A DNA stretch of 64,000 nucleotides from Saccostrea echinata. Taxonomy: Eukaryota. The stretch spans positions 9,548,001 to 9,612,000 of the forward strand of contig NW_026889753.1 of assembly GCF_033153115.1 (NCBI RefSeq). The letters are read 5' to 3'. This document shows positions 32,911 to 63,515 of the stretch, one piece after another. The notes under the pieces were generated by a model that was given only the letters and a program-made list of their open reading frames with translations, searched no databases and was not told the DNA's origin. How positions within the stretch are numbered: the stretch's first letter is position 1; each line of letters opens with the position of its first letter. The translations under genes were made by a program, and so were the position numbers.

Positions 32911-32963
<53 letters not shown>

Positions 32964-33815
32964 ATTTCCCATTGTAATTACTTACTTTTGAAAATAAAAT
33001 AATATATGCTCCTTTCTGACAGCCATCAGCTCCTGCCACATTTATACCTGATGCTCCCAACACACAGAAATCTTACGAGGCTTTGGAGGCTGTAGAGAGT
33101 CTACAAGGACAGCTCATGTAAGTACCCAGCAGCTTAATTAAAATTCTGTATGAAGGACAGGGCCACATGGAATATAAATGGATACAAGTACTGCCCATAC
33201 TTCATGGCAGGTAATTGAATTATGTAAAAAATGAAGCATTTTCATGGTGTTCAATTTGAAAATGTGTGAAAATTAATCTGGATACCCATATTAAATTTTA
33301 TTTTTAAAAGGATTTTAAGAAAATATAAATTACCATTTTCTCTGAGACTGTAGGCAATCTGGATATAATGAACATAATTAGTATTTGACCAATCTAGAGT
33401 TAAAAAGCATCATTACAGGTGTTCATTCTTGACAAACCTGTAGGCTCCTTTTATTTACTAGATCTTTATCTTAAAGTGATTTCACAGTAATGTTTTCTCT
33501 CCTTGACTCTTTAGGGCCACTGAGCAGAGAGCTCAAGCCGCAGAAGACCGAGCTGCTGAGGCCGAGTCAGATCTGGCCGACGCCAACGAGCGAATCAGGG
33601 AACTAGAAAAACGATTGGCCAAGTTAGAAAAGCAGGAGGAGGAATCTACAGTAGGTGACAAGACCCCCACCAAGGCATCAGCCACACCCACAACCCCTAG
33701 GGAAGAACCTGCTGCAAAGGAGAAATCTCCAGAAAAGAAGGAAGAAAAGAAGAGACCTGAGTCACAGGCATCTAAAGCTAGCTCCAAATCTAGTAAATCC
33801 AAGAAAGGGAAATAA
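18284..33815 (+). CDS. AXDND1: Axonemal dynein light chain domain-containing protein 1, about 1069 aa (25 core coding exons)
   Basis: Exons 18284-18380, 18495-18667, 18850-18950, 19052-19160, 19983-20068, 20838-20894, 21207-21315, 22079-22153, 22488-22582, 22675-22767, 22965-23031, 23135-23293, 23573-23841, 26372-26453, 26670-26852, 27261-27312, 28157-28373, 29421-29514, 29829-30019, 30693-30789, 32175-32363, 32602-32730, 32819-32908, 33023-33117, 33515-33815 (3210 nt, open). Motifs [52 protein letters not shown] and [13 protein letters not shown] match AXDND1 as I recall it. Confidence 0.9.
25388..25832 (+). mobile_element. Decayed Helentron/HINE-like element
   Basis: AGCTCA...TTTTCTGATCAAA start and GTGGCTCATGGGCCTCTT end, collinear with 12131-13328. 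Confidence 0.5.
26944..27130. mobile_element. Tc1/mariner-type MITE, TA TSD
   Basis: TA|CAGTGGAGCCTCATTAATCTGG ... CCTGGATTAACAAGGCTCAACTG|TA. Confidence 0.7.
30775..31770. repeat. Intronic minisatellite, core unit about 23 bp (CAGACTCAGGGTAGGTCCTGTAT), roughly 30 copies
   Basis: Tandem copies directly visible. Longer variants (TGTTTACAGAGACTCAGGG...) at both edges. Confidence 0.95.
32914..32960. repeat. (CT)n microsatellite
   Basis: Perfect CT run immediately after an AXDND1 donor site. Confidence 0.95.
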
Positions 33816-36520: not shown

Positions 36521-37735
36521 TGGCAATTAATTTCCCAAAGTGAAACCAATGACTTTCCAATTTTAAAGAAAAAAGCTTGACGCTACCATCACATCTATCA
36601 TTTTAAACAGTTGTGGCTACTCTTTTCTCCAATATGAAGTCTCTGGAAGTCAATCTCAGGGTATTAAAACATCTAGTTAGTTAGAACTTCAGACTTTAAA
36701 TTGCTGCGAGAGGTATAAATGTAAAATTGTCACTGAGGTTGTTGACACCCAGAGCTCCCATAAAACCACAAAACAAGCGTTTTTAAACCAAGTAGATCAT
36801 TTATACAAGGTCTATTTGTACTACAGGCGTGTCAAATGTAGTCCATGTTAAGACAATGGTGTCTCACGTACAAGCCTTATACACATTAATACTGGTGTCC
36901 TGGATTTATTACTTACTGGTACTTTCTGTTGCCGCTTTTCTACCCGATGAACCCACATGTAATTGCAGAAGACTGTGATATAATAATATTAATAACCGGA
37001 AACTCGTACAATCGTGATTTTAATAACGTGTCCTTTTACATGTATTACTAAAATCATTAAGACATGCATGTGCATAATTATCAAATGTAGACGTATTAAA
37101 GATATGATGCATTTGTTAAAATTCAGGATACACTTAAACACAGGTCAGTTTACCAGTTAGATTTAATAAATGTATTTAAGTTTCATCAAGTTTCATATGG
37201 TGCGTACAGTCAACTCTTCAAATGTTGGCCTGTATGTAGGCCTATTCCCACGATCACGACCTGTTACACTTGTTAAAAGAATTTATTAATAGTCTAGAAA
37301 ACCTCAAAAGTAGAATTAACGTTTAGTCTGCTGGTGGGAGGCGATGTTAACATTGAATGTATTAGGTTTAAAGAGCCTGTCCTTTAAATGTTTTTAATAC
37401 TTAATCTTGGCTACCTACTGACATACCATTCAAACAGTAAAACTTTTCAAGTTTAACGCTCCGTGGTCAATACATAATACTTGTATTGAAAACCCTTAAA
37501 AGAAAAACAAAAAAAGGCCACTACACTATAACCTAACATCTTCACCTAGCTGGTCCTAGGAACAGCTGGAATATCATCTCGCTGATGGTGGTGCTAGGAG
37601 TGTTACAACATTCTGAAAAACGTAATAATCCGAAAACGAAAACTGAAAATTTTTTATTCTAAGACTTTTTTGATGGAAGTTCAGCCTAAAATTATTTTTA
37701 CTTCAGGTTAGGGGGAAAAGGAATATGTGAACATC

Positions 37736-38788
37736 ATGGATGAAGCACACAATCTTACTCTGCAATGGAATCAGGACTATACGGAGAAACTTCTGCCCAC
37801 AGTTGTATTTCAAGGTGTTGTCTGCTTTATTGGTCTGGTGGGAAACATATTAGTGCTTCTTGTGTACGCTTTTCGAATGAAAGGGAACCGTGATGATCGC
37901 TACTTCATACCCATCTTGGCTGTGTTCGACCTCATCGCAAGTGCTGTGGCATCGGTATTTTACGTTCTCGAGTCCATCTACTTTGTGGACTTTCCATCGT
38001 CCGGCCTTTGTAAAGGTATGTTGTACACCATGACAGCTACCTCGGGTTTGTCGGCTCTGCTACTTATCGGAATAGCTGTCCAGAGGTATTTGAAAATCTG
38101 CAAGCCTCACGGAAAACAAATGGACGAGAACAAGAGGAAGCTGTGCTTGGCCTGTATTGTAGTATTCTCCATCTTGTATTCATGTCCAGTTTTGTTGTTC
38201 TCTGGAAATAAAGAAGTGGAAGGGAACTTTAACGGCCATAACGTTACTGGATTAACCTGTTTCACAGGAGCAGGGAACTACCCTACTTATGAAGCAGTTT
38301 ACTATTATATCATCTTTCTTCTCATGGTGGCCAATATCCTGACTGTGGGCTTCCTCTACATCCCAATCGGAGTCGTCATTTATCGCCACAACAAACTCAG
38401 AGAGGCTCGACGTAGGAAAAGTATGGACATCACATCAACTCAATTCGATTCAATCTCTGACAATAAGCCAAGCCAGTGCAGCACCAAAGAAATTTCATCG
38501 AAACCGAGGACTTACAAAGAAAGCAAAATTAATTTCAATGTGATGTTCTTTACCATTATTGTGTTTTATCTCATTTCCTACACACCAACATGTATTTTTC
38601 TGATCATCAGCAAACTTTCTCCAGAAATGTGGTATAATATTTCTAACGCCGAAATGATTATCTTCTTCACGTTGCAGAGATTTTACGTCATCAATCACGT
38701 GGTTAACCCAATCATTTATGGTTATTTTGACATGAAATTCCGCTCTGACATTATCAATTTGTTTAAATGTTTACCCAGTAATTACTGA
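37736..38788 (+). CDS. Class A (rhodopsin-like) GPCR, peptide-receptor-like orphan, 350 aa, single coding exon
   Basis: Seven hydrophobic segments. TM1 GN, TM2 LAVFD, TM3 Cys and QRY, ECL2 Cys, TM6 FYLISYTP, TM7 NHVVNPIIYG, helix 8 FR. N-terminal NLT sequon. First ATG at 37736. Acceptor TTTTTACTTCAG| at 37706 implies an upstream UTR exon. Confidence 0.92.
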   Translation: MDEAHNLTLQWNQDYTEKLLPTVVFQGVVCFIGLVGNILVLLVYAFRMKGNRDDRYFIPILAVFDLIASAVASVFYVLESIYFVDFPSSGLCKGMLYTMTATSGLSALLLIGIAVQRYLKICKPHGKQMDENKRKLCLACIVVFSILYSCPVLLFSGNKEVEGNFNGHNVTGLTCFTGAGNYPTYEAVYYYIIFLLMVANILTVGFLYIPIGVVIYRHNKLREARRRKSMDITSTQFDSISDNKPSQCSTKEISSKPRTYKESKINFNVMFFTIIVFYLISYTPTCIFLIISKLSPEMWYNISNAEMIIFFTLQRFYVINHVVNPIIYGYFDMKFRSDIINLFKCLPSNY

Positions 38789-43311: not shown

Positions 43312-46300
43312 CTAAACTGGTGGTCCGTTAACACCTGGGTGTAGGAATGAACACGTGTTTCCTCTCCGACAACCACCTGCAGCAAAATGACGACAAACGG
43401 CTCGATCTCCATTCACTGAAACAAAAAGTTGACTTGTTCAAGAAATTCTTGTTACAATTTGAAAATAACTCGAATATGTATAAAGCTTATAAAGAATAGC
43501 AGAATATGACTTATGGTATTTTAGGCTGCAATTGTTTCTTCACTACACAAGTTTCATCTCTTTGTTGCCCACCATTATGCACATGTATATGCATGTCTGT
43601 ATTTGCATGTCAACAAAAATTATATTTACCTTGTCTAACTCTGCCCCCTCTTCCTCCCCTCATTGGAGGGCCCATTGGAGGGCCACCAGGTATTCCTGGA
43701 GGAGGACCACGGGGTCCCCCACCTCTCATAGGTATACCAGCTCGACCTCTTCCCCTCATAGGAGGACCTCCAATCATGTTTTCTCCCCATTCATCGCTGC
43801 CAGGGCCACCTAATGCCATAAAATCAAAAAGTCAACCTTGATAAATGAACAAAACGTTGCATGACATTTGACATGCACAGTTTCTTTTTTAAAATAAACA
43901 TACAATGTCATACCTGGGAATCTCTGAGGACCCCCTGGTCCCATCATGGGAAACCCTGGAGGAGCTGCTCCTAAGATTCCACCTGGAGGTGGTCCTATCA
44001 TTCCCTGTCCTGGGGGAGGCATTCTCATACCTGGACCAGGTGGGTGCATAGGTCCCATTACTAAAAGGTACACAAAAAATTAAAATCAAGAATAAGTGTC
44101 TCTTTAAGGAGTTTATCTCATTTATTACAATTTTTTTCATTAGTCTAAGCTTTAAGGTAACAATAATTTACCTCCAGGATTCTGCATTGATTGGAATGGT
44201 TCAAGAATTTGTTTCAGTTTGTCAAAGGCATCCCCTGTTTTATTAGGATCTCCAACTGTTCCCTGCAAGTCCAGAAAGTAAAGGTACATATCAATACAAC
44301 TGTATTTGAAGAAGTACCAACATAATGCCAGAATTCTATTTAGATGGTACAGTAAAACTTGTTGAATCCGGATGTTGTGCATTCCGGCATGTTGTTCAGT
44401 CCGGCGTAATATTTTAGTCCCAAGAATTTTCTTTATAATTTATGTTTAATAAATGTTGTTCAATCCGGATCTTGCCTATTCTGTAAACCGGCCGCCTATT
44501 TGAAGAACTAACTGCTCATAATTAGTACAAATTATCTCCTCTAATCCGGCCACTTATTTTTACCTGTGCCCGCTGGTCATTACCGAAGTCTTGTGTGGGG
44601 TAATTATTGTCCCGTTAATGATCTCTCCTTTATCGACAGTTTAGCTTTTAACAAACGCGATAAATAAATCATTAATTGCTCAAGTTAGGGGATGGTTGCG
44701 TGAAGCATGTCTGTAGAAAAACTTGGAGACTTATTCATGACCTCCTTTCTACTTTCGTTTTGCGTGCACGACGTTGCAATTCGAATTACTTCCCTTTGTG
44801 TCGCTAGTTTACATCGACCATAACGACAGAAGATTTTTTTTCCAATATTCATTAAAACGTTTGAAATTAACAAATACATTGTCAAAATATTCAAACATAT
44901 TAATTTTAAAAGAAAGAAATTAATTAGCAATCTGTCCCTAACAAAATAATATTTACAGCTACGATGATGTTTTGGAGTGTGTTTAAAATATTTAACGATT
45001 TTCAAATTTAATAAATGACCAAGAGATATCATATTTCGTTACTGAATAAAAAACTTTAAACAGAAATGAAAATTATGAAAAACAGAGTTCAAAACAAACG
45101 AAACAGACGATTTTTTCAAGTGAAACGTTTGATCAAGTATTTATTTACCACTCTTTGTTTATATCTATGTAATTTTTATCTTGCTATAACGGTTCAATTT
45201 TCTCCAATCCGGATGTTGTCTAATCCGACCAAAAATTTTGGAACCACTGGTCGCCGGATTAGACAAGTTTTACTGTATAAAGATAAGGAATATGTTCTTA
45301 CCATCATTGATGCCAGGATATTCTGAGCACTGGCTGGGTCTAAGTTTGGTGGAAGTCCCCCTCCCTGTTGGAATGTTTGCAGTACGCCTGCAATATCTGG
45401 TGGTATATTAAGCTGACCAAAAATAGCATTGGGGTCAGGGGTAGCATTACCAGCAGAGGACTCAGTTGTGGTTGGGTTAACATGTGTGAAAACATCCTCT
45501 CCTGTGGAGTTTTCCTGTGGAGTCAAAAAGCAAGTCCAGTATATCCCAGAATTTTTCTACATCCTGATTAAGACTATTACATGTATGTACAACTACTGTA
45601 TGTCATTATCTAGATTGTGCATATTGTATTTAACAGTAATGAAATGCCTAAAGGTACTTTAACTTACATCTTCAAGGGGAATAAATTTTGGATCTGCAGG
45701 TTCTACTGTTTCTAGGTCAGGTTCACTCGGTGTGTCAGGAAGCCTGCAATGAAGCAGTAGATTTAATATGAATACTCAGATGAGTCAAAAAAAAAAATCT
45801 TACCTATAAGTGTATGCAAAAATGTCAAATTTACTGTTGTAGGTAAAATTACACACACAGTGTATACTTCACTTTTTCTTAAAATAATCATAACTGCATA
45901 TGTTCATGTATTACTTGCAATCTTCATTCAATTTTGACAGGTACCTGCTGGCCTTACTTACATTTCTTTGGTGAAGAAGATGGCTTGTAGAACACTTTTT
46001 TCTCTATCTTTCTGTATCTGTTTTTCTTTGCTCTGATAACCAGGTTCAACATTCACCACTAAATCTGTTATTAATGGAGGCCTTCTCCACTGTAAAGATA
46101 ACCCAACACTCAATTCACAGTAAGTGACTTTTATATGCAAGACTCTGTCCCCATTGAAATGGGCAAAGATGTAACTTATGAAGAAAGACAACTTTTACAA
46201 TGAGTAAATTACATGTACACATTAACTTACAGGAATAGCTTCCACCATGTTGTCTTTGGTCTGTCTTCTTGCAGATTCCATCACCTGTCAAATATATTTC

Positions 46301-49300
46301 ATGCATGTATAGTGACCTTAAAAATTCTGCTAGTAATTACAAGTTATCATTTGCCTACCAAAACAATATAGAACCAAAGCATGTCTACCTTCCTATCCAT
46401 ATGTGCTTCTTGTTTCTTTAGCTGGTTAAAGTCCTTTGGTCTATTTACATTTTCTGTAAAGGTAAAAAAATTAAATAAATAATACATAGTTTTCATGTTG
46501 GCAATATGTTTCAGCTAGCTTGTTTTCAGTCACTAAGAATAAATTAATGAAGGCTGTCTGTACCTCTCTCCGTCTCATCCAGTTCAAAGTAATGGAATAA
46601 TCGTAGACTGGAGTCCTCAGCCCAAGACACTTTCTTGTTTTTCTTCTTTTTCCCTGTAGCACCTGTTGTCAGAAGACCTTTAGATTCCCCGGACTTTTCA
46701 TCTGTGTCCATTGCTTCTCCATTTGTTTCAGAACCTTTATTGAGTATTTCAAGACAATTATATAGGTACACTTTAAAAATGAATATTGATTTGTCATCTT
46801 ATTTTCAGTTTGCATGGACAGCACTAGATTTAAACAATATTTTGTTTATTTCAAAAAACAGCAAAAAAAAAAACAAAAAACAAAAAACAAAAAAACAAAA
46901 AAACTCTTTTACAAGTCAAAAACAAGGTTCAATTATTTTGTTTTCAAAATTTACCCTCTTTCAAAGCATCAGTCATTTCCACATCTTCTGAAGTTTTATT
47001 CTCCTCTAGAGTGGGTGGGGCAGTTTCTTTGTCATTTTTTTCTGTGGGGGAAGGGCTCCTCTTATCTAAAATAGGAGGACTTGGGCTTCTTTTCTCTTCA
47101 GTAGGTGTTTCCAGCGTGTCTTTGTAAAACTATCAAAATCATAAATTTTATCATATCAGTCTTATTTCTACTTTTCCCATAACAGTAACACCTTGATTAC
47201 AGACACCTTAAAACAATATTAATTACAAATGTATACTCATTTGCAAACAAAGTCAGTATATACCTGGTACATTTTTTTCTCTTTCAATTTAATAAAACTT
47301 TGAAACTACATCTTCCTTATTGAAACAAGGCAAAATAAAACCCCCACTGATAAAAACAAAAGAGAGTGATCCTATTTGAGGACTTACAGATGGAACAACA
47401 GGAAGTGAGTTTTTGATGGCAGTGGTTGGAGAGATTGGAGTATGGGGTGATGTAGGCGTTGGGGGTTTGGCAGTAATCGGAGTTGTTGGACCTCGGGAGG
47501 CACCAGGTACTGAGGTTATTGCCACTGTGGCACCAGTTTTCTTTTTCCTACGTATAACCCCAGTAGGACGGTCCGGAAGGAGAGAGTCAATGAAATTTGT
47601 ACTCTCGTGTATCACAGCTGAAAGTCAACATGAATCATAATATAAATTTACACAGTAAACACTTCTACTTCTCTAAAAAAAACCAATCTTGTCACAGCAA
47701 GATATCAATGAGTCAGACACAAACATAATGAACTCAGAATATCAGCTTTTTGACAGAGATTTTTCCCCCTAATAGTGTGTAAACATTCAACATATATACT
47801 TGATCACTTACTTTTGGGTTTAGGCGGTGTAATTTTGATTTGCTTGTGTACATCTGCAGGAGAAGCTGTGGTGGGGGATTGAGCAGGTGGTTGCTCCAAT
47901 GTGCCATCCTCTGTGGACCCACCCTCCAAGCGGGACCGCTTTCCTGGTGGTTGCTCCTCCTTTGGTTTCAATTCCGACCTTTAATAAAATTGATAAATTA
48001 GAAGTGTCATTTAGCAATTATCATCTTAGTGTATGTAAATAGCAGTAGCTTTGAAAGACAATCTTATCAAGTTTATTTATTTATGTCATGCTTACCCTTG
48101 CCTTTTCTGTTGTGACTTGCTTGGGTCATTTGACAGTTTCTTTGATTGTTTGGTCACAATGTCCTCCTCCAAACCTATAAAATATAGCATTCATAGAGTG
48201 AAAAAAATCAAAAATCTTCAACAAACTCATCAATTATCACATCAAATAGAAAGATGAAATAAAATCACACCTGTTGACCTGAACTTTGTGTTAGGTCTTT
48301 TTACTGTGGAAGCTCGTTTCTTGTCTGGTTTGGAATCTTTATGAAGGCTATCTGACTTAGATTTATCACTGTCTGACACAGGAGGTCTTTCTATCTTAAT
48401 ATGAAGCTTAAGTCCATTAGTTTTTGTCACAACACCTAATGAGTCTTTAATGCTCACATCCTCACTAAGTTTTTCCTCTTTAGTTCTATGTTTGGAGTAT
48501 TTCTCCTCTTTAGATTTCTCACTATTCTTTCGGTTTTCATCAGATTCCTTGTCTCTATCACTCTTTTTACTTTTCTCTTTGTCCGACTTCTTCTTTTTAG
48601 ATTCACCTGAAAACAACACATTACCAGCAATTACAGCATCAGATTTAAAAACTTAAAAATTTCAATGTTCTCCTAATAAAGTCATCATTATATTTCTCCA
48701 GTAAAAATACAATGTAAATTGGTGAAAATAACTTTACTAAATTTTCTAATCAAGTAAATTAAATATTTACACATGTACGTACCTGATACTTCATTATTCT
48801 TTCCTCTGACCTTCTCCATCCACTTATCAACAATATCAGATGACATTGTTTTGACAGCTATGAAGGAAATATAGAAACAGACTATCAAATGTGCATTGCA
48901 ATTACATTACAGATGTATAATTTACAATAATATACTCACTGGGTATATATGAGGGTGGTTTTTATGATACTTTATCAAAAAAAAAAAGACTAGTAATACA
49001 TGCAATTTTTTTTTGGCACAGTTGCTGGCTAATGATAGGGCAAATTACGGTCCAAAAAATCTTGAGGTATACTGTACTGAAAGGAGCCTCTTTCACTCCC
49101 TCATCAGGCAAGGAGGCAGAGTAATCAAGAGCATGCGAGCATGAAATGTAATGAAATGAAGGGCAACAAAGCAGAACCATTGCTAGTGATTGCAGAATAA
49201 GGATCATCCTCACATTGCCCCCACCCCCAAACCCTGGTGTTGCTGCCCTTGTATACTTGTTTCATTGTATTGTCATATTTACAGTATCAGTCCCTGATGC

Positions 49301-52300
49301 TGTCTTGCCTCAAGGTAGTACAATGTAGCAGGCCCTACTGGTACAACATAATGATACACAAGAGCAATCAATCAATACTGTGGATTAAAACTCACTTTCA
49401 TTGTCACATTTAGAAAAGGCTTTGATGGTCTTGGCAGAGTTGTTTTGCTTTAACAGTTCCACTGTAACTGGAAGTTGCTGGAATACTTTAAGCATTTCTA
49501 CCAGGACTGGGTAATTCTCCGATTCTTTACAGTCTTGTAGCCAACTATTGAGGACATCCCAACCTCCCACCTCAATAAACCTACAGGTATCATCAAAAAT
49601 AAATCTCAGAAATTAACATTTTTCTGCTCGTCAGAATGTTTTTCCAATTTTTTTTTTTTTTTAATTTTGTACATGTACTTCAACAGTACATTTAGCTTGT
49701 TTCAATTTTATGCCAACTTAGATTGCATGAAAAATGTTGATAGTGTACGAGCTTTATCTTACTTTTCCAAAGTTTTCTCAGATTCTGTAGCTCTGAGGAT
49801 GTTGATGTAAACACATCTGCTTACAAGCTTGTTTGCTTCTTTCATCAAGCTAACTATTCTGGATGTTTCAGTTGGACTTTTGATGGCACCATTTGGTGTT
49901 AACAAGGGAGCTAGTCCCTTTAACAACTGATGGGGATCTATTGGGGCCTGTAAAAAGTTTGTCAGTGTTAATTTTAAGTACTTCAAAGATGCAAATTCAT
50001 CAATCCTTAATATACTCATATATGTGAACTCAGAAATCCTTCCTGAATACCGGAAATGAAAATCATTGTTTGCTTCTAAAATCATTTTCATATTAATTAT
50101 TAAAATGGACTTCTTTTCTTCTCAATCATAAACAGGGGGGTATTTCCAGAAGCCAAAAATGTTTCTATTGAGAATAAACATTACAAATTTAGTACTGTTC
50201 TAGAACTCTTAATGATCAATATTGGGAATTTGCAATACTTTCTAGAGGCTTCAGACTAAGTATCAAATTAAATTATAATTAGGCTATAATTATTTTCATG
50301 TATATCTTATTAATTTTATCTGTGTCTGTGTATATATTTTGGCCTTATGTAGAGTCAAACCTTTAATTTCATAAAGAAATAAAACATTTGCTCTTGGCCT
50401 TATATGTATTCATGTATGCAGTATGTTTTTGAAAGTTATTAATTTTCAAACCATTGCACTCGTTTCTTTCTCTCATAAACCTTGAACACAGCATTCAACT
50501 TTCATTAGTTCTATGCAAATCTTTTTTACACTAAATGATGAATTCAAGCATCAATTTTGCTCCAAATCTTACTTCCAACAAGTATAATTTGCTTTTCCCC
50601 ATGTAAATTTCATTAAAAATCTTTTGGATTTTAATGTCTTTTAGTGGGATAACTGGTTTTATTCAGTTTTACTGCCTTGAACAATGTAAACTCAGCTATA
50701 CTGCACTTAAGTATTACTACTAAGATGCTTCCATAGTGTCTAACTCTTATTCCTTAATGCCTCAAATAAATGTTACCTTTCTTTCCCAGGTAGTGTATCA
50801 ATGATTTTCTAAATCTATCAGGCATAAAGAGTGCTTTCTTTTTTTTATATGAAATATCAAATCTGCAATTTAGATTGTGTATCTTGAGAAAATCCCCCAA
50901 AACAACACACACAAGATAATGAATCAGGAAGTACTTCTTGTTTTCCGTTTAAAGCCTTTCGTTGACTGACAATGAATTTATCATACATACCACATATGAA
51001 ATTTTGTTCATTTCCTTCCCATAACTTAGTAAATTTACTAAATCATATATTTTGTCTTGTATTTTTTAAATCTATTTTTATCAAAAGGGGCATCAAAAAA
51101 CTACTGAAGGACACAAACACTCACAATGATGGTGTTGAATTAGAATTCATCCATGACCTCCGATAAAACCTTGGCCAAATAAGAACCTATTCACCTCATA
51201 TTGTTATAATTAGTGAATTACATGTACTTGAAGCTTTATAATCTCAAGACAAGATACTGTACAGTTCATTTGTCAATTTCATGACACCCCCCCCCCCCTT
51301 TAATCAGTTTCTCCAACATAAAAATAAGTGTAACTGAGCCAGACTTTATCCCTTTATCCAGTGTTCTATATAAAATTTAAATGAAAAAGAAAATTCAAAT
51401 GATCTCAAGTAAATCCACTGAATTTAATCAGGGCTCTCAATTGTCTTTAATTTGGGCCAATGAAAGTCTTCTGTTCTGAATTTTTAAGAAATGGTACCTT
51501 TTTCCCCAAATGAATTCCCCCCCCCTCCCCCCCAAAGAACATATATTTGGATATATACGATTTTGGATATGACAATGAACCTTGATATTCATATTATTGT
51601 GTGTGTTGCAAAACAGTAAAAATCAAAGCTGATAACAAAATATGACAAGTCTTTATGTATAATGATTTTCCAAATATTTCCCCATATGACATGAGAGCAC
51701 TGCTTATAAAAACATAAAGGTGTGTAATGCTGCATCTAAGCTGAAGAAATTTTGTTTCTCACAACCAATAATGTTTAATGTGGCATTTTAAATTTGGATT
51801 CTAGAAAAGTTAAGAGGGTCTTTATAGAATAAAGCAGATGAAAAAGTAAATGGATAGGCAGTAAAACTTAAATTCATTTGTCAGTTCTATCTTAAAGCCC
51901 CGATACCTTTATGATTAGTAGGACATTACAATCAATGAAGCTTATTAAAATCACTGAATCTCATCCTTTTAGTTCAAATAAACAAAGACCAGTTTGTTTC
52001 ATTTTCCTGCGTTTTCTGTAGAGTTTGTGCTTCATTTTCACTTGCCTTTATTATGCCTTTGGACTGTTCTTTGATAACATATTGTACTAACAGATACATG
52101 TACAAAGAGCTAGGTTCACTTTATGTACATTGTATAAAATGGCCCTGTTCATAGATCAACTAATCAGCTGTCTCCATGTCCTATATCGAGCACTAAAATA
52201 GAGACTATGTTTTCAAATCATATCAAAAAGCTCTTTTTCAATGTCCACATTCGAGAAACAGCTTTGCAGATCTGTTGTGTATTTGAATTTTTCAGACAAA

Positions 52301-53058
52301 AATGCGCATTTTGAGTACACTCAACACAGATACTTAGCAGGAGCCCAGCCAATGATGAATTTCTTTAATAGTTATATCAATATTTACTTGGAATTTTTAG
52401 ATCAGAGATAAGACTCTATTAAAATATTGCAAAACACCTTGATATAATTCTCATTTTGGAATTTTTTTTAATGCATTGTAAATAATGATGCATTTCATCA
52501 TATCACAATACAAAGACTAGTTATAAAATTATGTCATTTTAGCAGATGTATATTTAGTCATCATGAGCCAAATTGATATTTAACACAATGTCGGTGAACA
52601 TTGAACATTTTTTTTTTTTTTTAAATTATAATTTTACATGGCCAAATATGGCCCTTGGTGAACCTTGCTCTTATATATCAATTTATTCCTTGATCTGATA
52701 ATTTCCTCCTTTCCTTTTGTTCATACAGGGCCAGAAAATGTTCTACTTTCATCCCAAAGTTGATGACCTCTCCAGTTGTGCTAGACTTCAAGATCTTTTT
52801 GTCTGGGATACATACCTCCGATTTACTGGAATTTTCCTCAGAAAAAGACCACTTCTATAATATAACTCTAATAATATGTAATTTAAAATTTCAATGTTTT
52901 CAAAATAAATTTTATATCTTCAATAAAAGAGAATGCTGTTTTCAAGGTCTTATATCCCCACTTTCACTCCTTTTGCAAACACACTGGATTTAACACACAT
53001 GTTTTCAGCATCTTTTTTTTTTATTCTGTTGTTCTGTGTTATGATAGAAAATTACCAT
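43312..53058 (-). CDS. PPP1R10: Protein phosphatase 1 regulatory subunit 10 (PNUTS), about 887 aa, 19 coding exons
   Basis: Exons 53058-53056 (ATG only), 49947-49763, 49580-49396, 48857-48783, 48606-48271, 48174-48096, 47978-47812, 47617-47388, 47129-46955, 46734-46564, 46453-46389, 46284-46231, 46089-45962, 45743-45668, 45514-45302, 44262-44172, 44060-43914, 43809-43630, 43415-43312 (2664 nt, open). N-terminus [17 protein letters not shown]-like domain, PP1-docking KVSW (46622-46633) followed by [12 protein letters not shown]/Pro-rich region, C-terminal CCCH finger [27 protein letters not shown]. Confidence 0.95.
44350..45275. mobile_element. Tc1/mariner (pogo/Tigger-like) non-autonomous element, TA TSD
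   Basis: TA|CAGTAAAACTTGTTGAATCCGG ... CCGGATTAGACAAGTTTTACTG|TA. Subterminal AATCCGG repeats. Confidence 0.85.
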
Positions 53059-54577
53059 TTTATTTTAATATTTTTCATCTGGGATGATTATTATTATCAG
53101 AGAGCAAGGGAAAATGATTGCGTTCTTGACTTTAATCGACCATTGTTCCACGCAGCAGACTACAGCAATCTGAAAAGAGAAAAAAAAGGACTTTTAAGGT
53201 TTTTGTTTTTTTTTTTCATTCAACTATGATCAAACTCATATCTAAGCTATATGACAATTGAAGCTGCAAAATCAAGTTCAATAACTTGACTGTATGAATG
53301 TTTTGCTAGTTGAGTGAAGGTGTAGGTCATTGATGTGACCAAGTATCAAGAGAACCTGTGTCCAATATGGTTAAAACCAGGCAGGTACCCTGTAACAACG
53401 AACTATTCAATCTAGTGATTGAATCTAGTTTAAGTTGGTAAAGAGTGTTGATGAAATAATAATGGGTAGACTAGTTTTGTTGTTCTTTCCTTAAAATTTA
53501 AACATTGCTGCAATTCGAAACAAGCTACTTTTTTATCAAGTTTTTTTGATAAATAAATCTATAGAACTTTTTTTTTTCAAATAAAATTCCTGCCAGCCCT
53601 ACCCCGCACTGAAATAGCAGTAAGTGTTTTTACACCAAATGGATATTCTTTCATGCAATGCCATACTGTTCTGAAAAATTCATTTTATCAGAATTTTAGC
53701 AGGGGAAATTCTGATCTATTTCTTTAGTTCTCTCCCTTGGTAGGTTATGAATTCAGTCATTCACAGAACTGTTCCTCTGTCCAATACAAAGACAGTTACA
53801 TTTTGTATTTCTACCCGAGTGTACACATTCAACTTAATTTACATAGTCAAAGACGCTTAAAAGATTTGAATGCTTTCCTGTAAAAACTTCAACTAATGGG
53901 TAGCTAATGGATCATTTTCCCACTATTTTCCTCTTTTATGTACAAATTCTTCCTCCTGAAATTTCTTCATTATATAAAAATAATTCAATGCCACAAAACA
54001 AAAAGTTGACAAGGAAATAAATCTCAACACATAAAATTTTAAAATTTACCTACAGTTAACAGGGTTAGAGTATTTCATAATGTTGCAAGAGTATTGCCAA
54101 AATTGTTAGAGATAATTTTCCAGGAGCATTCTACGATCAAAAACCGAAAAAACTTGTAATTTCTTGTACCTTACATTTAATACAGAAAAACCAGTTGGTA
54201 GCTGATAAATTTGTCTTGCTTTAGTCTTTTCATCAATAATGTTCACTAAGTACCTCATATGACACAATGGCCTATAACAGGAATTCGACACTTTAAGAAG
54301 TGCAATGAAATCATGATGGAGTTAAGACTATAATCATGAAATGATGCAAATTGTAAATCTCTTTTTTTATGCATATTCTATATTTAATTTAGGGATTTTG
54401 TAACTGATATTAAATCAATCAATCAATCAGCGTGATTTAAATATACATGAGATTCAACACCGGTCCAATGGTTATAGAGATATTTTAAGAACAAGACAAA
54501 AAAATTGCCTCTCCAAAAAGTATATTTTAGTGTAGTAGGTTGCAAAAAATCTTTTACTTTATTAAATTAGATATATT

Positions 54578-54747
54578 TACAGAAGCCCATTTACGACCTA
54601 TCAAAAAATATTTTCAAATTCGATATAACGAATTGTAGAATTTGTTATAATTGAATTGAATTGTAGAAACTGTTATAATGAATTAAATTCGTTATATCTA
54701 ATTAATTCAAAAATATTTTTTGATAGGTCCTAAATGAGCTTCCGTAT
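54578..54747. mobile_element. Palindromic MITE in PPP1R10 intron 1
   Basis: TACAGAAGCCCATTTACGACCTATCAAAAAATATTTT / AAAATATTTTTTGATAGGTCCTAAATGAGCTTCCGTA. Confidence 0.7.
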
Positions 54748-55580
54748 ATATTGAATAATCCTTTAAATAAGAAAAAATATATATATTTATAGAACAAAGA
54801 AAATACATCAATGTACATGTATTTTTATTTTTAAATCTTAGTCATGATTTTTGTGAAAAAGGTTCCAGATTCCTACCATATTATCACAGTATATGTACTA
54901 TTGCCATACTCATAATCTCTTCCTTTAGGCCTAATTATTAGTAAACATGGTATATAACCAAACTTTTACTCTGTTCTTTGTTTTGATACCAGCAATAATT
55001 AATTAGCACATCTATCTAAATCTAAACGTCCTTGATCCACCAAAGGTCGGACTATCATACGAGTTATGACGTCACATATGGGTGTATAGTAGGCCTTACT
55101 CAAAGGGTACGATAAATAAATCCCGTTTCCATGGTTACATAGATTACATAATCATGTGTTAAGCTGCCCTACATTTCGTCATGGTTGCAAGATGACATGA
55201 CTGTAGAACGGCAGCCATGTTCTTTTTCACATAAAAAAAACTTAGCTTACTAATAAAGTATATACAATAAAGTGAATATGTTTAAAAATAATACAGAAAG
55301 ATACAAAAATACGTATATCAATCATTTTATACCCCATTATAATATGTCAAAGCTACGACATACAAATTATGCCCTATAGTTTATAGGTTATTCGGTCTTC
55401 TCCAGGAGGACCCATAATATCCGACAGAGCACATATTTTCTCTCCCATTCACAATGTAATTTGAAAGATTCTTTAATAAGATTTTATCTATAGTAAACTT
55501 TTATAATATTTTACAATATCAAATCGTTAAACTTAACGTGTTATACAAATAAACAATATGGTAACCAACCAACAACTTAC

Positions 55581-55985
55581 GATCGAATTAGTGAATCCTT
55601 GTCCTGTCTAGGCTTTATGTTCAGCCTTTATACGGTTACTTATGGTCAAAGAAATATTGTGGAATTATCACGTTCCACAATTTATACATGAGAAAATAGA
55701 TCAAAACAGCAGTATTTCAAGCAAATATGGAGTCTTCTATAAATCGCTAAATCCAACGGCCGTTGTCACATGTGAAGAATATAGCGAAGAGTGTTGATAG
55801 TTTTGATTAATATTTAAGAAAAATAATAATAAAATTTGGAGGAATTAAAAATTTAGATGCAATTTACACAACCAGTCTCATGTACGTTTCAACCTATCCC
55901 TAGCCGTTACAGTAAACGAATGCGGTAGCACTGTCGGCAATGTTGTGACGTCACTGGTCGAGCTCAAGAAAGAGAACAGTAAGGA
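55581..55985. promoter_or_regulatory. Bidirectional promoter and non-coding first exons of PPP1R10 (minus) and MRPS18B (plus)
   Basis: Minus-strand donor GATC|GTAAGT at 55581/55580 and plus-strand donor AACA|GTAAGG at 55978/55979 face outward. Palindromic CRE TGACGTCA at 55946-55953. CpG-richer than the flanks. Confidence 0.55.
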
Positions 55986-56452
55986 AATAGAGTTATCAAA
56001 GTCAGTTTTCATTTTATTATTACTTGCTTTTTTCAAATCACTGCAATTTGGTATAAATATCGTTAAAAATGACCAAATTATCTCTTTTTAAGAGAAGGAG
56101 TCAGTAATTACCTTTTAACACTGTTTACTTCAATTTATATAACACGCTTATCCCATTCGTCTCACAGTATTACAATGCAAAAATTTAGGTCAATGTTACA
56201 AGAAACAAAAGCATTTAATACGTATTAAAATGAGGCCAATTTAACCTTTTGTGCATGCTGTAAATGGATATACTTTTTACATTTTTGAATATTTTTCATT
56301 CATCGTGACTTTATTTTTGCAAAGATTGTGTTTTATTAAATATCAAGGGTGAATCTATTTAAACAGAATAGGTGTTTTTCAAGTCTCCCCCTTCTTATGA
56401 TATAGACTCAACCAAACGTTTTCTCGATGCAGATCAAAGTGAAAGTAGAATC

Positions 56453-59400
56453 ATGTTGAAGATTTTTCAGAAAGCATGCCTGCAGTTAGTTTCTTTGGAC
56501 ACCAAGCTGGTAGTTTATTTTTTTCTTTTCTAGAATTGATATGAAATAGCTTATGGATTGAGAAGTATAAAATCATAACCAAGAAGGGGCTATTTCGTCA
56601 CGACAACAAGTATCCTTTGCTTGACCAAGCGGGGGAGGGGAGAGGGGGTTAATACTGTTTGAGGCTCCTGCATCTTGTTCGCTACGATTGCAAAATTATT
56701 CTTAGGGAAGGTGGGAAAAACAGTACCCAGCTTGGATTATTTTTGTTGTCCGGTTGATACATTCTGAGGTATGGTTATAAAATTCTTGATTGGTGAATTG
56801 CCCTAACTGCAGAACTGTACTGTAGTTACATTTGATATTCAAACATTTTTCTCTTCTCATTTTCATATTTTCAGGGCCTTGGCAAAGTCTTAGTTTTGTT
56901 GTATATTCTTTTCAAAGTTCATTTTTAAAAACAAATTTCTTATTAATATATTGACGGTGCGACTGTTAGAGCGAACACAGATGCCTATTATTGGATACCT
57001 ACTCAGTTTTAAAAAACTTAGATCAGTCTCTTCAAACCGCATGAGACATTTGGAAGGTCACATGACATCATATATTAGTTGCATTACCATTTATAACATA
57101 GTCTCAAAAGTGCAAATTTTAACAAAGAACATTTAATCTACTATATTTCAGAGTTGTGAAAAACTTTTTCAGATAGCCAGTCATTCGGACTGGCAAGAAG
57201 ACAAAATAAGCCGGTCTGAAGTGAATTTTGCCGGTCCAAAATAATAAGTCGCAAAAAAAAGCATAACATCTATTTACTTAATAATAATATAACATTCAGT
57301 CTCCATTTCCAAGTCCTCTTCCATTTTCGTTTTTTTTTTACATTTACAACAATACTTAATTTCACCGCTTTTTGGGCTAATGACAATGCTAATTCAGCAT
57401 AGTAAACATAATTTTTTTGAAACACTTATGCATTTTGCGAATCACATTAACTTAGAAAATGAGTCTAAAAAAACTGTAGAAATTCTGTGCATTGATAATA
57501 GATATCAACACGATCAATGAAAAAACGAAATCCAGGACAGTCGGAAGTACTAGATTTACCGCTTTCCCCAACTGTGTTTGAATTCTTTCTGTCGAAATTT
57601 TTCATATATAGCTTGTCTTTATCTGTTTCATTATGTTTTCTACCTCTGCTTCAGTTGTAAATTTAATAGGTCACGAGAACATACTGGTTTCGCTTTCATT
57701 TACAACCTCGATCTCGTGTAAAGAAAAAGTATTACGCAATCGCACATAAGGTACGATAATAAAGCTGAGAAGTGCGCTGATGATAAATGGTAAAACAAAA
57801 AACTTTAATCAAAAAAGGGGCCGGTCATTTGGACCGACATCGATAGCATTTTTACCGGTCACACGCATTTTTTGTCTGTTTTGCCGGCATGACCGGCAGT
57901 TTTCCACAACTCTGATATTTATCTGCAATATCCATTAAATCAAGGTGAGATTATTTTCTGGTAAACTTTTGTTGTTACCACAAGAATGTAGTTAACAGCA
58001 GGATGCATTTGCATTGCACTGTGGATCTCAAGGGAAATGGGGAAAAAATCAATTGGATCAATATGCAAAGTCTGAATTTTCTCTTCGCCCAGAGGTTGCT
58101 CTTACAGCTCACAGTGATGAGCGGCACCTTGTGCCACTGGATGCACTCGCTATTATTACTTTTTGTGAATGTGTATTTATTAATAAGTTAAAACAAAGAA
58201 TAACAATACTTTATTATGAAAAGTAAATCTACTACTGAATCCTGATTGGGTGACTTCATCATGCATACAGCCTTGTTTTCACATGTGTGAAGACAGTTAA
58301 TAAATATGTCTATATTCACAGCATGAATTAATTTATTGACAATAAAAAGGTCTAAAATCATCAACAACTTTGGTATGACATTAATAGCTGTGCAGCTGTT
58401 TTTGCATCTTGCTGTGTGTACTTGTAACATTTGTACATTCTGTACATTGAAGTGTTAATTTTAGAGGAGTTCTGATTGTCAATGAGTATTTGATGCAGTG
58501 GTGATAAGCAGTGAAACAGATGCAAGTGCCCTGCTGTTATTCACCTATTTCAGCAGTGATAACACCAAATAGATTTATAAAATAGTGACAATATTACAAC
58601 GTGTTCTTATGATTTACAAAAAGAAAGGGGTTAAATTGTTCAGGTGACTTAAACTTTGCTTTTGTGATAATTTACAATGAAGTTTGGAGCTCAGAAGGAA
58701 CTGTTTCGCCTCAGTTGCCTACTAGCTTGGTCCTTGATCACCTTTCTGTGGTTCCAAATGGACCTCTTGGAATGCCACAGTTTTACTCCACTGCATTAAA
58801 AATTTATTTCAAATGTTTCACAACAATTGCCATTTGGAATGTTTAAAGAAAATGAAGTAATGAGAGTAGGAGTAAAATATGATATGCTTGATTAATTAAT
58901 TGTTACCATGCTTTAGATGGGGTGATGCATAAGTAAGAGAGAGGAAAAGAATATGATGGACCAGACAGGATTCGAACCTGGCCCTTGAACACTAGACAGG
59001 TGCTCTACCAACTGTAGCTGCCTGGTCACTGGTGCTCAAACCTGCCTGACCTCCACACCTGTAATGCCAGAAATAATTCCCAAAGCTTAAAAATGTTGTT
59101 GTAATTTGAAAGATTATCCAATGTTTGGATCTTTAGATTTTTGGCTTGTCTGTCAAAATTAGTAAAAGATTGGACAATGTGTTTTATGATCAGTTCAGAA
59201 TATTTTTTATACGGTAATTCTGACTGCCATCAGAAAAACTTTATACAAGTATGTTGGATAGGAGAAGTATTCCAGATACGTAGTATGAAGATTTAACTTT
59301 ATTGCCAGGGGATGCAATGTTTTTCAGTGCCTTCATTCAAATCTAAGGTGTATTTCATTTAGATGAACTGCTTTCCATTGACTTTATTAGTAGGTGGGGA

Positions 59401-62211
59401 TGGGTGTGTGGGTATTTTTGAAAATCCTTCTGGCTTCACTACATGTATATATCATGCAAAGACTTTTGGCATGCTTGGCTTACTTTATAGTAGAAAACAC
59501 TTGAGCTGAGAGAAATATCATCTGAATACATGTATATAAAGCTGAACGAAAGAGATGATTGAAGAAATTTTTAAATTTCCAAATATTTTACATTGATGTT
59601 TAGCTGGCAGTGTCTGGTACTAGATCGATGTCACTGAAGTGGAAGGATACAGAAGACCATGAAGACTCGGAGGAACTCGGTCAGGTCTATGGAGGGTTTG
59701 GTTACAAGAGGAAAAGGAAACCTGAGGTCACGTACCAACAAAGCATCAAGTACCTCGACAGTGCTGGTTTGTAATGTTCTTTTTACATTTAACCATATAC
59801 ATGTAATATTATTGTTGTCTTCTTTTGTTCAAGATCATTTAAAATCTGAATGAAAACATTATAGGGGTAATTGAATAGGACATTTTTTAGAACGTCTTTT
59901 TTTCTGCAGCATTTAGAAAAGCCTACGGGACAAACAGAGTATGGATGAGATACAAAAGGAATTATAAAGGGAACATAATGCCTAAGCCTCGGTACACTTG
60001 TACTGTAAGTTCAGAATTTTACCTAACTCTTTAATATTACCATATCCTTGAGGAGTCTATAGTTCATTATTTAACCATTCAATGTCTTGTATTGTATGGT
60101 TTGATATTACACAAATCTTGTTAATATATTTACCAAAGACTTGTTCATTACCAAAGTTACAAATTACCCAAATTTTGTTCAATAAGATCATAATATTTAA
60201 TACCTAGTCTTGTAAGACAAGTTCTGACTGAAGAGTATTATCTATGCTTGTACAGAAAATTTAAAATATTAAACAAGCTGCAGAACTGTAGCTTTCTGGG
60301 AAAGAAATTTTAGACCCCCCCCCCCAAAAAAAAAAAAAAATAAGAGAGTGACAGATCCATCAATTGTAAAAATCTTTGATTAATGTCAAGTATTGGCAAC
60401 ATCTTTTTATAACAAGCTTCAGGTTTTATTTCTCACTAAATGTTGATTGTTGTGAAAGTAAATGTGAAACACAGAGTAATTCCCCTTTATGGTAATACAT
60501 GGAGTAGAAGCTGTGACATTCTAAGGCCATAGTGGGCTGTTTGGAACTGAAAGGTAAATAAGGCAACAATAGTAGGAGAAAAATATATCACTAATTAACA
60601 GATATCCTGCTGAAGGTGAAGGAATGCTGAAACAGTTGACCTTATCTCGAACACTGATATCTCAAATACCAGGGATTAACCGAAGTGATTTGGAAGTGCC
60701 CCACATATTCTTGAAGTATTTTACCCTCGATATCTTGAATCTTCGAATATCTTGAAGTTTTTTATCATTCCCACTGAGTTTGAGATAATGAGGTTTGACT
60801 GTAAAGTGTAATTTGAAAATACTAACTGAAGAGTACAACAAAAATATATAAAATTTCAGTTTTTTCAAATATTGCATTTGAATATTTGTGCTTAAGAAAT
60901 TTGAAATCTGGAAACTTGAAAATTTTATTTCATGACGTTTCATTACATTGAATAGAGAATTTTGATTTTTGTGCAGCATAAGGGTGTTTTTCTGACAAAC
61001 AACCCATGTCCAGTGTGCCGAGATGTTTATCTGGTGGTTGACCACAGGGTAAGCCATTACAATGTACTATTCTGAAACTTTCCAAGCACAATACACCAAT
61101 TCACATAGCTGACCGATTGAAAATTGTACAAATTCAAATAAGCATATAAGCATATGAATATGAGTGTGTTTTTCTACTCCTTTTCCAGAATCCTAGACTC
61201 TTAAAGGAGTTCTTAGATGCCAACTCAATCCAGGTCTCTGACAACAGGAAGACAGGAGTTTGCTATAAACAGCAGAGAAATCTGATCAGGGAAACTGAGC
61301 TGGCCATTGAGAGAGGTGAGTTTTATCAGATACTTATACAAAGAGACTCATTTGCTCTTTTAGTTAAAAGTTAATTAAGAAATAAGATATCATTTTTAGA
61401 GTTTCATTGGGGTATGACATGATCACGTGATCAAATCCTATAGCTATCACGCTCGAAGGGCGTTATAGTAGATTTGATCACGTACCGACTTCATGTCATA
61501 ACCCAATGAAACTCTAAAAAATGATATTTTATTTCTTATATATCATATTTTACTTTTTTATTCGTGAAATATAGGCATTATTTAGATTTTGCTATGGAAA
61601 TGCAACATAGCGTACCTACGACGTCATTTGATGTCACAATTGGAAGTTTCCAATTATGGCTCGTGTGGTTTGTTTTCCATACGCGAGAAAGTCTTATCAT
61701 GTGACCAACTGCATGTCATTGATAATTGAATTTCAATTTAATTAGTATTGTTATATAAGGAAAGACAATGGCAAATGTAAAATATTTCAAAATGCAATAT
61801 TCTTAACTTAATGAGATTACCAGGAAATAATTTTTCTGGCACTTATATTCGTGTTTATATTTTTTGCTTGGGGAGGGGTGGGGGTGGGGGGGTGCACAAA
61901 GTACATTTCTAGAATTCAGTTATTGTGAGGAATATTGATGAACTACATGTCAGTCCTGAGGAAGAATGAGTAAATTTGAATTTGAATATTTGATAGGGTA
62001 CATGGAGGGTAACCTGCCGTTCCGGGGATATGACATGGACTATTACAGATCTTTGCTAAACAAGCCAGAAGAGACACAAAAGACAGATGTTCCATTTAAA
62101 ATCTTGAATCCAGAGTTACTGCCATATAATATAACAAAGAAAGATGGTAAAGCAAGGAGGGAAGAGAGGCAAAAGAAACTCAAAGAGGACATGGAAAATA
62201 TTAAAATCTGA
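56453..62211 (+). CDS. MRPS18B: Mitochondrial small ribosomal subunit protein mS40 (S18B), 242 aa, 6 coding exons
   Basis: Exons 56453-56509, 59604-59766, 59910-60004, 60977-61048, 61189-61315, 61997-62211 (729 nt, open). KYLDS..F..AYG..RVWMRYKRNYKG, PRYTC, NPCPVCRD..L.VDHRNPRLLKEF and TGVCYKQQR match MRPS18B as I recall it. The first coding exon is less certain. Confidence 0.9.
57149..57914. mobile_element. hAT-like non-autonomous TIR element
   Basis: TIR CAGAGTTGTGAAAAACT / AGTTTTCCACAACTCTG. ATATTT on both sides. Subterminal CCGGTC/GACCGG repeats. Confidence 0.75.
58955..59035 (-). repeat. Degenerate tRNA-derived repeat (SINE head or pseudo-tRNA)
   Basis: Minus strand reads ...CAGCTACAGTTGGTAGAGCACCTG...GGTTCGAATCCTGTCTGGTC with A- and B-box-like motifs, but the anticodon arm is damaged. 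Confidence 0.55.
60633..60801. mobile_element. Tc1/mariner-type MITE
   Basis: CAGTTGACCTTATCTCGAAC ... GTTTGAGATAATGAGGTTTGACTG|TA. Confidence 0.6.
61376..61538. repeat. Palindromic element in an MRPS18B intron
   Basis: AAGAAATAAGATATCATTTTTAGAGTTTCATTGGGGTATGACATGA / TCATGTCATAACCCAATGAAACTCTAAAAAATGATATTTTATTTCTT. Confidence 0.75.
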
Positions 62212-62812
62212 GAAGTTTTTGATGAAATGTTTTTATTGCACACACACACACACACATGTACTTCTGAAATGTTTTTGGAGTGCTTTTTACCATCTAGTGT
62301 ACATTCAGGCAGAAGATGTGTCTTTAATTTATTTGCTGTTTGAAAATATGACTGAAGATTTTTTGTGATTAACTTCCAAAGAAACATGTGAGGGAACATG
62401 TGAGGGAATTACAAACAACAAATTACAAAGACCCTCGATACATTACACACTAAAGAGTTCTAATTTTTTTGCACTGCAGTATTTTTATGCAGTTAGAGTG
62501 ATCTGCCCTTAGGTAGAAAAGAAGCTAAATTGAAATTCCTGTATTATTCAATTTTTAATCAGTTCAAGCATTCTTCAAGTTCTTAGCATTTTTTTGGCAA
62601 AGATAAATTTATTGAATATTATTTGATTTGTGCCTGTTTATTTTTTCCCCACATTATTAAGCATCAATACTTTATTGTCTTTGAATTTTTTTCCTGGAGG
62701 TAAACGGCTGATATTCTATGTTGAAAATGAAATAAATAAATACAACCTTTATGCGATATATGTACCTCTTTATTTGATATAATTTTCTCAATTTCCAAAA
62801 ATGTATAGAGGG

Positions 62813-63515
62813 CACAGGCACTTGTTTCGATAATAAATTTTTAACACATAGCATAATAATAACACAAGGTATCCAACTCCGAATTACATGGAGTACCCCC
62901 CTCCCCCAGAATTGCATTCATTTACACTTTCAGAAGAAATGCACTGGCAAACTGTTTATACCTATTTCTTCTAAGATAATTTATCTACTCAACCATATAT
63001 GGCATGCTTGTCTTTATTTTCTTTTTTCTCCGTAAACAGCGTCAAAACTCTGCTCGCCGAGTGGAAAAGTCGAATTCAACCATGAAATGGTATGTGCTAA
63101 TCCCGGGCAGAGATTTTGATTGGCTAATAATCTGTTCCTAAAATTACATCGGATAAACATCGTAATGTTTGCAGGGAAAATCAGACTTAAACAAATTCTA
63201 TTTATTCACTTCATGCTCTCTGCCCGGTATTAGCACATACCATTTCATGGTTGAAGTCGACTTTTCCACTCAAAGCAGAGTTTTGATGCTGTTTATGGAG
63301 ATAAAAGAAAATACAGAAAAAATGCCATGTATGGTTTTGTAGATAAATTATCGTAGAAGACAATGGTAGTAAACAGTTTACCAGTGCATTTCCTCTAAAA
63401 GTTTAAATGAGTGCAATTCTGGGGAGGGGGGTACACCGTGTAATTCGGAGTTGGATACCTTGTGTTATTATCATACTCTGGGTTAAAAAGTTTATTACAG
63501 AAACAAGTGCCTGTG
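62813..63515. mobile_element. Foldback element with arms of about 300 bp and an 8-bp TSD
   Basis: 62813 to about 63113 is the reverse complement of about 63217-63515 (ends CACAGGCACTTGTTTC / GAAACAAGTGCCTGTG). Flanks ATAGAGGG (62805-62812) and ATGGAGGG (63516-63523). Confidence 0.85.

Follow-up and report, generated by a model that had tools for sequence, protein, structure and literature searches.

A head-to-head PPP1R10-MRPS18B gene pair in the oyster Saccostrea echinata and a candidate CREB/ATF site in its likely shared promoter

PPP1R10, coding for PNUTS, and MRPS18B, coding for the mitoribosomal protein mS40, form a divergent gene pair that has already been described in animals. Table S2 of Touceda-Suarez et al. 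2020 (PMC7530604) carries the entry '118.0 [PPP1R10=MRPS18B]' as row 22 of the 52 ancient head-to-head pairs of highest co-expression; the entry consists of a count (linkage in 4 of up to 8 non-vertebrates) plus the code 01110100 only, and its source is Irimia et al. 2012. The species order behind this code could not be decoded from the Isl-Scaper and Otx-Ehbp1 rows of the same material. Irimia et al. 2012 (PMC3514665) followed 593 of 595 ancestral pairs back to the beginnings of Bilateria and classed the remaining two as protostome-specific; gene-order shuffles gave a false discovery rate of <0.0002 for chance retention in four lineages. In human the promoter between the two genes is bidirectional, carries full cyclic AMP response elements (CREs) just upstream of the MRPS18B start and is bound by CREB (PMC2774331, Fig. 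6). Reporters in the same work showed that TORC1 raises output toward MRPS18B and lowers it toward PPP1R10. Both genes appear in the human major histocompatibility complex (MHC) class I table; in zebrafish both are on chromosome 19 (PMC1309616). The present study describes the pair in a window of 64,000 nucleotides (nt) of Saccostrea echinata (contig NW_026889753.1, positions 9,548,001 to 9,612,000 of the forward strand), where the two genes lie head-to-head around a short stretch with a full CRE.

The oyster locus holds the very same pair as Irimia pair 118 (PMC3514665; relisted in PMC7530604), which is head-to-head, inferred to be ancient and classed as co-regulated. The listing, in the parts consulted, contains neither oysters nor promoter motifs, and the oyster locus adds both. 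As this ancient linkage is already in print, the main contribution of the oyster copy is one more species. As in human (PMC2774331), the divergent pair has full CREs at its promoter; the human CREs lie just upstream of the MRPS18B start and their binding and activity were measured, whereas the oyster CRE is a candidate site, abuts the 5' contig end of PPP1R10 and is accompanied by a second one in intron 1. HSPE1-HSPD1 and HADHA-HADHB (PMC3514665) resemble the oyster pair in being head-to-head with a short gap and in combining deep conservation with lineage losses. Their co-regulation is explained by the fact that the partners work in one complex, but no shared function was found for PNUTS and mS40 in the sources consulted. 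Marletaz et al. 2018 (PMC6292497) defined 372 putatively ancestral chordate bidirectional promoters which, like the oyster pair, are housekeeping and kept from an invertebrate ancestor; these were defined by cap analysis of gene expression, whereas the oyster pair is known from contigs and sequence. Pairs of this kind are frequent in invertebrates that evolve slowly: in amphioxus 25% of neighbouring genes have shared bidirectional promoters, mostly of housekeeping genes (PMC6292497). Neither gene symbol was present in four supplements of that paper and no match was present in the supplement of PMC13508932; in both papers other identifiers may be in use. Vertebrates and invertebrates have hardly any non-coding sequence in common (PMC7530604). 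Literature searches, judged by their listings and covering few subscription papers, found nothing in print on CRE sites at the invertebrate PPP1R10-MRPS18B promoter. Thus the ancient pair is already catalogued and the human CREB link already measured; the new part, within the searched literature, is a suggestive one, a CRE at an invertebrate promoter.

A preliminary description of the window had named two divergent genes, and both identities were borne out by PDB matches and protein mapping. PPP1R10 (minus strand) and MRPS18B (plus strand) are both intact (Table 1). For PPP1R10, the S. echinata protein P0018, 887 residues long, matches the minus strand exactly at 884 positions in 18 blocks, and at least nine introns are bridged by contigs (among the 15 joints listed). 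The first long coding exon matched PPP1R10 in the PDB (E 4.6e-14). The hallmarks of PPP1R10/PNUTS are in place, namely a TFIIS-like N-terminus, an RVxF-type motif and a C-terminal CCCH finger; the finger was seen on the close homolog P0001, in which Pfam recognized TFIIS-N (PF08711, E 3.9e-9) and zf-CCCH above the cut-off. The plus-strand gene model is identical to the S. echinata protein P0008, which carries PF01084 and has mS40/MRPS18B as its best PDB match (E 1.7e-21), with MRPS18C at 0.092 and MRPS18A unlisted at E<=1. When mS40 was set against MRPS18A and MRPS18C, profile A4 gave 4.6e-50 versus 3.2e-13 and 3.3e-10. It could be argued that the oyster and human arrangements arose independently, or that one of the genes is a paralog, since oyster MRPS18B is fast-evolving (stem branch of 1.9 changes per column in the tree) and the human side of the best-match test was the PDB only. 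This is extremely improbable and largely refuted, as both genes have clear best matches, mS40 and PPP1R10, and the pair is found in three more lineages and in the published list. With the PDB standing for the human side, the proposed orthology holds.

Two features of the gene models may be mentioned here. Exon 2 of PPP1R10 contains two upstream ATGs, at 53143 and 53078 on the minus strand, of which one opens a three-codon frame and the other an out-of-frame stretch overlapping the main start; translational damping by them is possible. Oyster MRPS18B has a C-terminal extension that is absent from most other animals in alignment A4.

Transcript evidence came from four of six runs, labelled 'RNA?', one of which (X6) is from another organism. 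Only contigs skipping exact GT-AG introns were relied upon, contig depth being unsuited to ranking expression; 15 splice joints were listed and 36 further ones lay outside that list. Contigs of X3, X5 and X6 splice at the minus-strand donor 55580 (joint 53169-55581; GT..AG verified). The single traceable full MRPS18B contig, of 1064 nt from X6, has its end at 56448, and the ATG follows five bases later at 56453. With strand read from the splice ends, the 5'-most transcribed bases of the two genes, 55924 and 56448, are at most 524 nt apart; contig ends bound transcribed bases, and the true transcription starts are outside their reach. The distance of about 400 bp previously proposed between the two first-exon donors survived on one side: the minus donor was confirmed, but no joint from the plus-strand donor 55979 was present among the 15 listed. 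Most of those 400 bp is in fact exon, because PPP1R10 exon 1 reaches at least 55891-55924. The depth of X5 in the bin 55940-56596 is compatible with 117-194 covered bases according to the depth assumed, which is too loose to place MRPS18B exon 1. The ratio of observed to expected CpG reaches 1.0-1.2 in 55000-56199, compared with 0.2-0.5 in 53000-54599, a pattern that an unmethylated promoter would show.

The perfect CRE palindromes reported earlier are both present: TGACGTCA occurs at 55067-55074 and at 55946-55953. The window contains three full CREs, where 0.35 were expected, a number reached in 0 of 100 shuffles. With local composition the probability of at least one CRE in 55581-56452 is 0.008, and none of 20000 shuffles put two within 55000-56500. 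The PPP1R10 contigs stop 22-55 nt short of the CRE at 55946, and from this CRE it is 500 nt to the MRPS18B ATG; measured to the PPP1R10 contig ends, this CRE is a full one near a start site, as CREB targets have. TGACGT cores are not enriched in the oyster locus (P 0.08). It should be noted that 11% of 1000 shuffles contain some palindromic 8-mer twice, and for that reason the CRE is notable mainly because the independent human result matches. The third full CRE of the window (5516-5523) falls inside an open stretch at 5453-5650 on the minus strand, a possible coding exon, and because this stretch may be coding the site is probably incidental.

On balance we think it probable that the intact PPP1R10 and MRPS18B genes share one compact promoter, with its central CRE likely binding CREB/ATF, in the ancient arrangement already catalogued. 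The orthology of the genes, their orientation and spacing, the CREs, and the recurrence of this arrangement at three other animal loci and in human are established points on which this proposal builds. Both genes would be needed in every cell and would be fired from one open CpG-rich stretch, the open promoter working in both directions with CREB/ATF as one input. As both housekeeping genes would depend on one short open stretch, most breaks would damage one of them; breaks between the genes being harmful, the linkage would decay slowly, yet it would be lost once the gap widens or a partner is swapped. No functional connection between the PNUTS and mS40 proteins would be required.

The linkage was followed in other animals. 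Among oysters, Magallana gigas has the two proteins under the consecutive accessions XP_011426266 and XP_011426267, and both genes are on one contig in S. cucullata (294,464 bp) and in C. virginica (59,045,500 bp). Homolog searches gave no non-oyster species with both genes by accession adjacency; distant accession numbers are poor evidence of absent linkage, as those of the two S. echinata proteins are 350 apart though the window matches both. When the PPP1R10 alignment was used to scan metagenomes, 196 pattern matches came up, none of them a relative; of the two patterns used, one spans an oyster intron. With a broad MRPS18B alignment, 200 pattern matches yielded 77 loci, which fell into 52 clusters; the 12 clusters with at least 2.5 kb upstream of the first matched exon were counted, and 40 were left out as too short or intronless. 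This is a convenience sample, in which 134 of the 260 listed upstream open reading frames (ORFs) and 14 of the 58 listed gap ORFs were examined. PPP1R10 was found upstream on the opposite strand in three of the 12 clusters, L023, L030 and L071, with PPP1R10 as best PDB match (E 1.7e-5, 2.8e-5 and 1.9e-12, respectively); Pfam gave no match in the 14 gap ORFs examined at these loci. No upstream neighbour could be named in four (L014, the L036 cluster, L043 and L072).

The orientation is 5'-5' in all three retained loci, as in the oyster. In L023 and L030 an exon ending in the start codon is followed by a phase-0 intron, which is also the structure of oyster PPP1R10. L027, which is below the 2.5 kb cut, has the gap and start-codon exon of L030, and about 560 nt of intergenic sequence are 73% identical between the two. 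L023, L030 and L071 fall into three separate groups of the MRPS18B tree, none of them with oysters; the tree is poorly resolved, leaving 21 of its 44 inner branches open and the phyla unresolved. Judged by an N-terminal motif, L023 and L030 are presumably arthropods. Unrelated genes with at most four intervening genes in at least four lineages define an ancestral microsyntenic pair, and such linkage is found here in oyster, L023, L030, L071 and human. The view that the pair has been kept since the bilaterian ancestor is upheld by the published ancient-pair list, by the tracing of 593 of 595 such pairs to Bilateria and by the three further loci; the microsynteny check that had been suggested for it showed the pair in three clusters, another neighbour in five and none named in four.

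Conservation of the CRE itself is less clear. In L030 a full CRE (P about 0.02) sits about 120 nt into the first intron of PPP1R10. L023 carries the variant TTACGTCA only, about 1 kb from the start-codon exon (P 0.11-0.26). A full CRE is thus present in one of the three other confirmed pairs against a summed expectation of about 0.12, which is a weak conservation signal; the background is 8 full CREs in 229 kb of genomic loci. The earlier suggestion of a CREB/ATF input gains from CREB at the human promoter and loses from this scarcity at the other head-to-head loci. TGACGT cores are not enriched in L023, L030 and L071. In L036, L042 and L049, about 1.3 kb of strongly conserved non-coding sequence (L036:1420-2800, L042:3500-4840, L049:2880-4220) is divergent from MRPS18B and ends in a start codon plus splice donor, as PPP1R10 does; it is a likely candidate for the 5' region of PPP1R10. 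These loci have the TTACGTCA variant about 1 kb from the start-codon exon and 4-6 TGACGT cores against 0.6 expected (P<=0.003); 5-6 cores were also counted in 2 of 74 background tiles. A 70-nt element upstream of MRPS18B, 79% identical between L062:7306-7373 and L043:275-344, contains TTACGTC. As PPP1R10 was not found at these two loci, such sites may go with MRPS18B or belong to housekeeping promoters in general.

The protostome-deuterostome ancestor lived more than 550 million years ago. A bolder proposal would be that a CREB/ATF-CRTC site has been conserved since that ancestor as a directional switch, turning MRPS18B up and PPP1R10 down, and that the linkage was selected for this purpose. 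It would account for the human TORC1 reporter result (PMC2774331), and the full CREs of the oyster promoter and of the L030 intron, the variant in L023 and in the L036, L042 and L049 loci, and the excess of TGACGT cores in the latter are in line with it. Moreover, PNUTS itself restrains antisense output at bidirectional promoters, according to a review (PMC8091971). Nevertheless we regard the proposal as unlikely. A full CRE was seen in just one of the three confirmed non-oyster pairs, core enrichment is missing from these and from the oyster, the divergent gene of L036, L042 and L049 is a candidate PPP1R10, the positions of the sites vary between lineages and the pair is often lost. In addition, CREB favours bidirectional promoters generally: 61% of the top CREB-bound human promoters are bidirectional (PMC2774331), so a CRE at a bidirectional promoter is not rare.

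Several observations weigh against a compact shared promoter driven through its CRE, and some of them would suit passive survival, in which a short gap is merely a small target for rearrangement, the genes have separate core promoters and the CREs are incidental. The link is not universal. In Drosophila the neighbours of PNUTS are dribble and ninaA (PMC3814315), and mRpS18B maps to 2L:38B6 (PMC2246290), so the fly has lost the link, and in five of the 12 surveyed clusters another gene lies upstream of MRPS18B. One of these is L062, where MRPS18B is head-to-head with BAT2/PRRC2 instead. In L023 about 4.9 kb separate the PPP1R10 start codon from the first matched exon of MRPS18B, in L071 the gap is more than 1 kb, and at such distances a sub-kilobase promoter is not shown in these two loci. 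A full CRE is absent from both, L071 being without the variant too. Other stretches near the oyster promoter are equally CpG-high (1.1-1.3), and the contigs place the MRPS18B first exon only tentatively. Shared promoter activity and CREB/ATF binding are, in invertebrates, candidates read from the DNA, and the opposite effects of TORC1 in human reporters sit badly with simple co-activation (PMC2774331). The rate at which shuffles repeat a palindromic 8-mer, and the position of the window's third CRE in what may be coding sequence, also suit passive survival. Even so, passive survival as the whole explanation appears doubtful to us. The published shuffles put chance retention in four lineages at a false discovery rate of <0.0002 (PMC3514665), the orientation is the same in 3/3 retained cases, and the human pair is in the top co-expressed set (PMC7530604) and is CREB-bound (PMC2774331). 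The idea in the preliminary description that the pair links RNA polymerase II termination to mitoribosome supply is not supported: no evidence for it was found, the pair is often broken and TORC1 moves the two genes in opposite directions.

The motif is the part of the locus that could matter, since the causes that hold unrelated head-to-head genes together are mostly inferred. With the CREB/TORC1 response measured in human and a short oyster promoter carrying one central CRE, the idea that a shared factor site keeps an ancient pair linked is easy to test. Lineages with a swapped partner, such as L062 with BAT2, are natural controls. If the directional switch were true, it would be a cis-regulatory input kept since the protostome-deuterostome ancestor and the reason why the pair resists breakage.

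Table 1. Features of the S. echinata window and upstream neighbours of MRPS18B at surveyed loci (positions of survey loci refer to the locus itself)
Feature	Position	Strand	Basis or remark
PPP1R10 (PNUTS) gene	43312..55924	-	non-coding exon 1, start-codon exon 2, 18 further coding exons; 887 amino acids
PPP1R10 stop codon	43314-43312	-	
PPP1R10 exon with RVxF-type PP1-docking motif KKVSW (residue 512 of P0018)	46564..46732	-	motif scan, exon mapping
PPP1R10 exon 3, N-terminal TFIIS-like region	49763..49947	-	PDB PPP1R10 E 4.6e-14
PPP1R10 exon 2	53056..53169	-	start codon 53058-53056 at exon end, then phase-0 intron; joint 49946-53055
PPP1R10 intron 1	55580-53170	-	contig joints, GT-AG
Full CRE palindrome, PPP1R10 intron 1	55067..55074	.	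506 nt inside donor
PPP1R10 exon 1, non-coding	55581..55924	-	contig pieces 55581-55893 (X3), 55581-55891 (X5), 55581-55924 (X6)
Maximal intergenic stretch, likely shared promoter	55925..56447	.	contig ends 55924, 56448
Full CRE palindrome between both 5' ends, candidate CREB/ATF site of shared promoter	55946..55953	.	local P 0.008
Previously proposed MRPS18B exon-1 donor, unsupported	55979..55984	+	donor score 5.9; similar candidate 56001 scores 5.5
MRPS18B (mS40) gene	56448..62214	+	242 amino acids; five joints in X6 contig
MRPS18B coding exons	56453-56509, 59604-59766, 59910-60004, 60977-61048, 61189-61315, 61997-62211	+	
L011, sorting-nexin type gene			opposite strand, upstream of MRPS18B
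L012, septin gene			opposite strand, upstream of MRPS18B
L062, BAT2/PRRC2	4093-4365	-	head-to-head with MRPS18B; PF07001, E 2.6e-9
L015, histone deacetylase gene			tandem, upstream of MRPS18B
L031, DOR-family gene			tandem, upstream of MRPS18B

The wider surroundings of the pair contain a few further features. BAT2, the partner of MRPS18B in L062, is presumably a human MHC class III gene, and this replacement may have been drawn from the pair's own ancestral region. In the oyster window a SURF2 exon is found at 14426-14635 on the minus strand (PF05477, E 4.1e-15). We take human SURF2 to be at 9q34, in a region paralogous to the MHC, and SURF2 nearby would fit an ancestral proto-MHC linkage group around PPP1R10-MRPS18B. 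A multi-exon coiled-coil gene at about 16000-33815 on the plus strand is apparently divergent from SURF2; Pfam and the ESM Atlas gave no name for it, and by our assumption it resembles AXDND1. Several copies of a repeat unit, seen as repeated translations, lie between SURF2 and this plus-strand gene at 15227-16050. An intronless rhodopsin-family G-protein-coupled receptor with an open frame of 358 codons is present at 37712-38788 on the plus strand (PF00001, E 3.8e-26). At about 62880-63480 an inverted repeat with two arms of a few hundred bases was noticed by eye.

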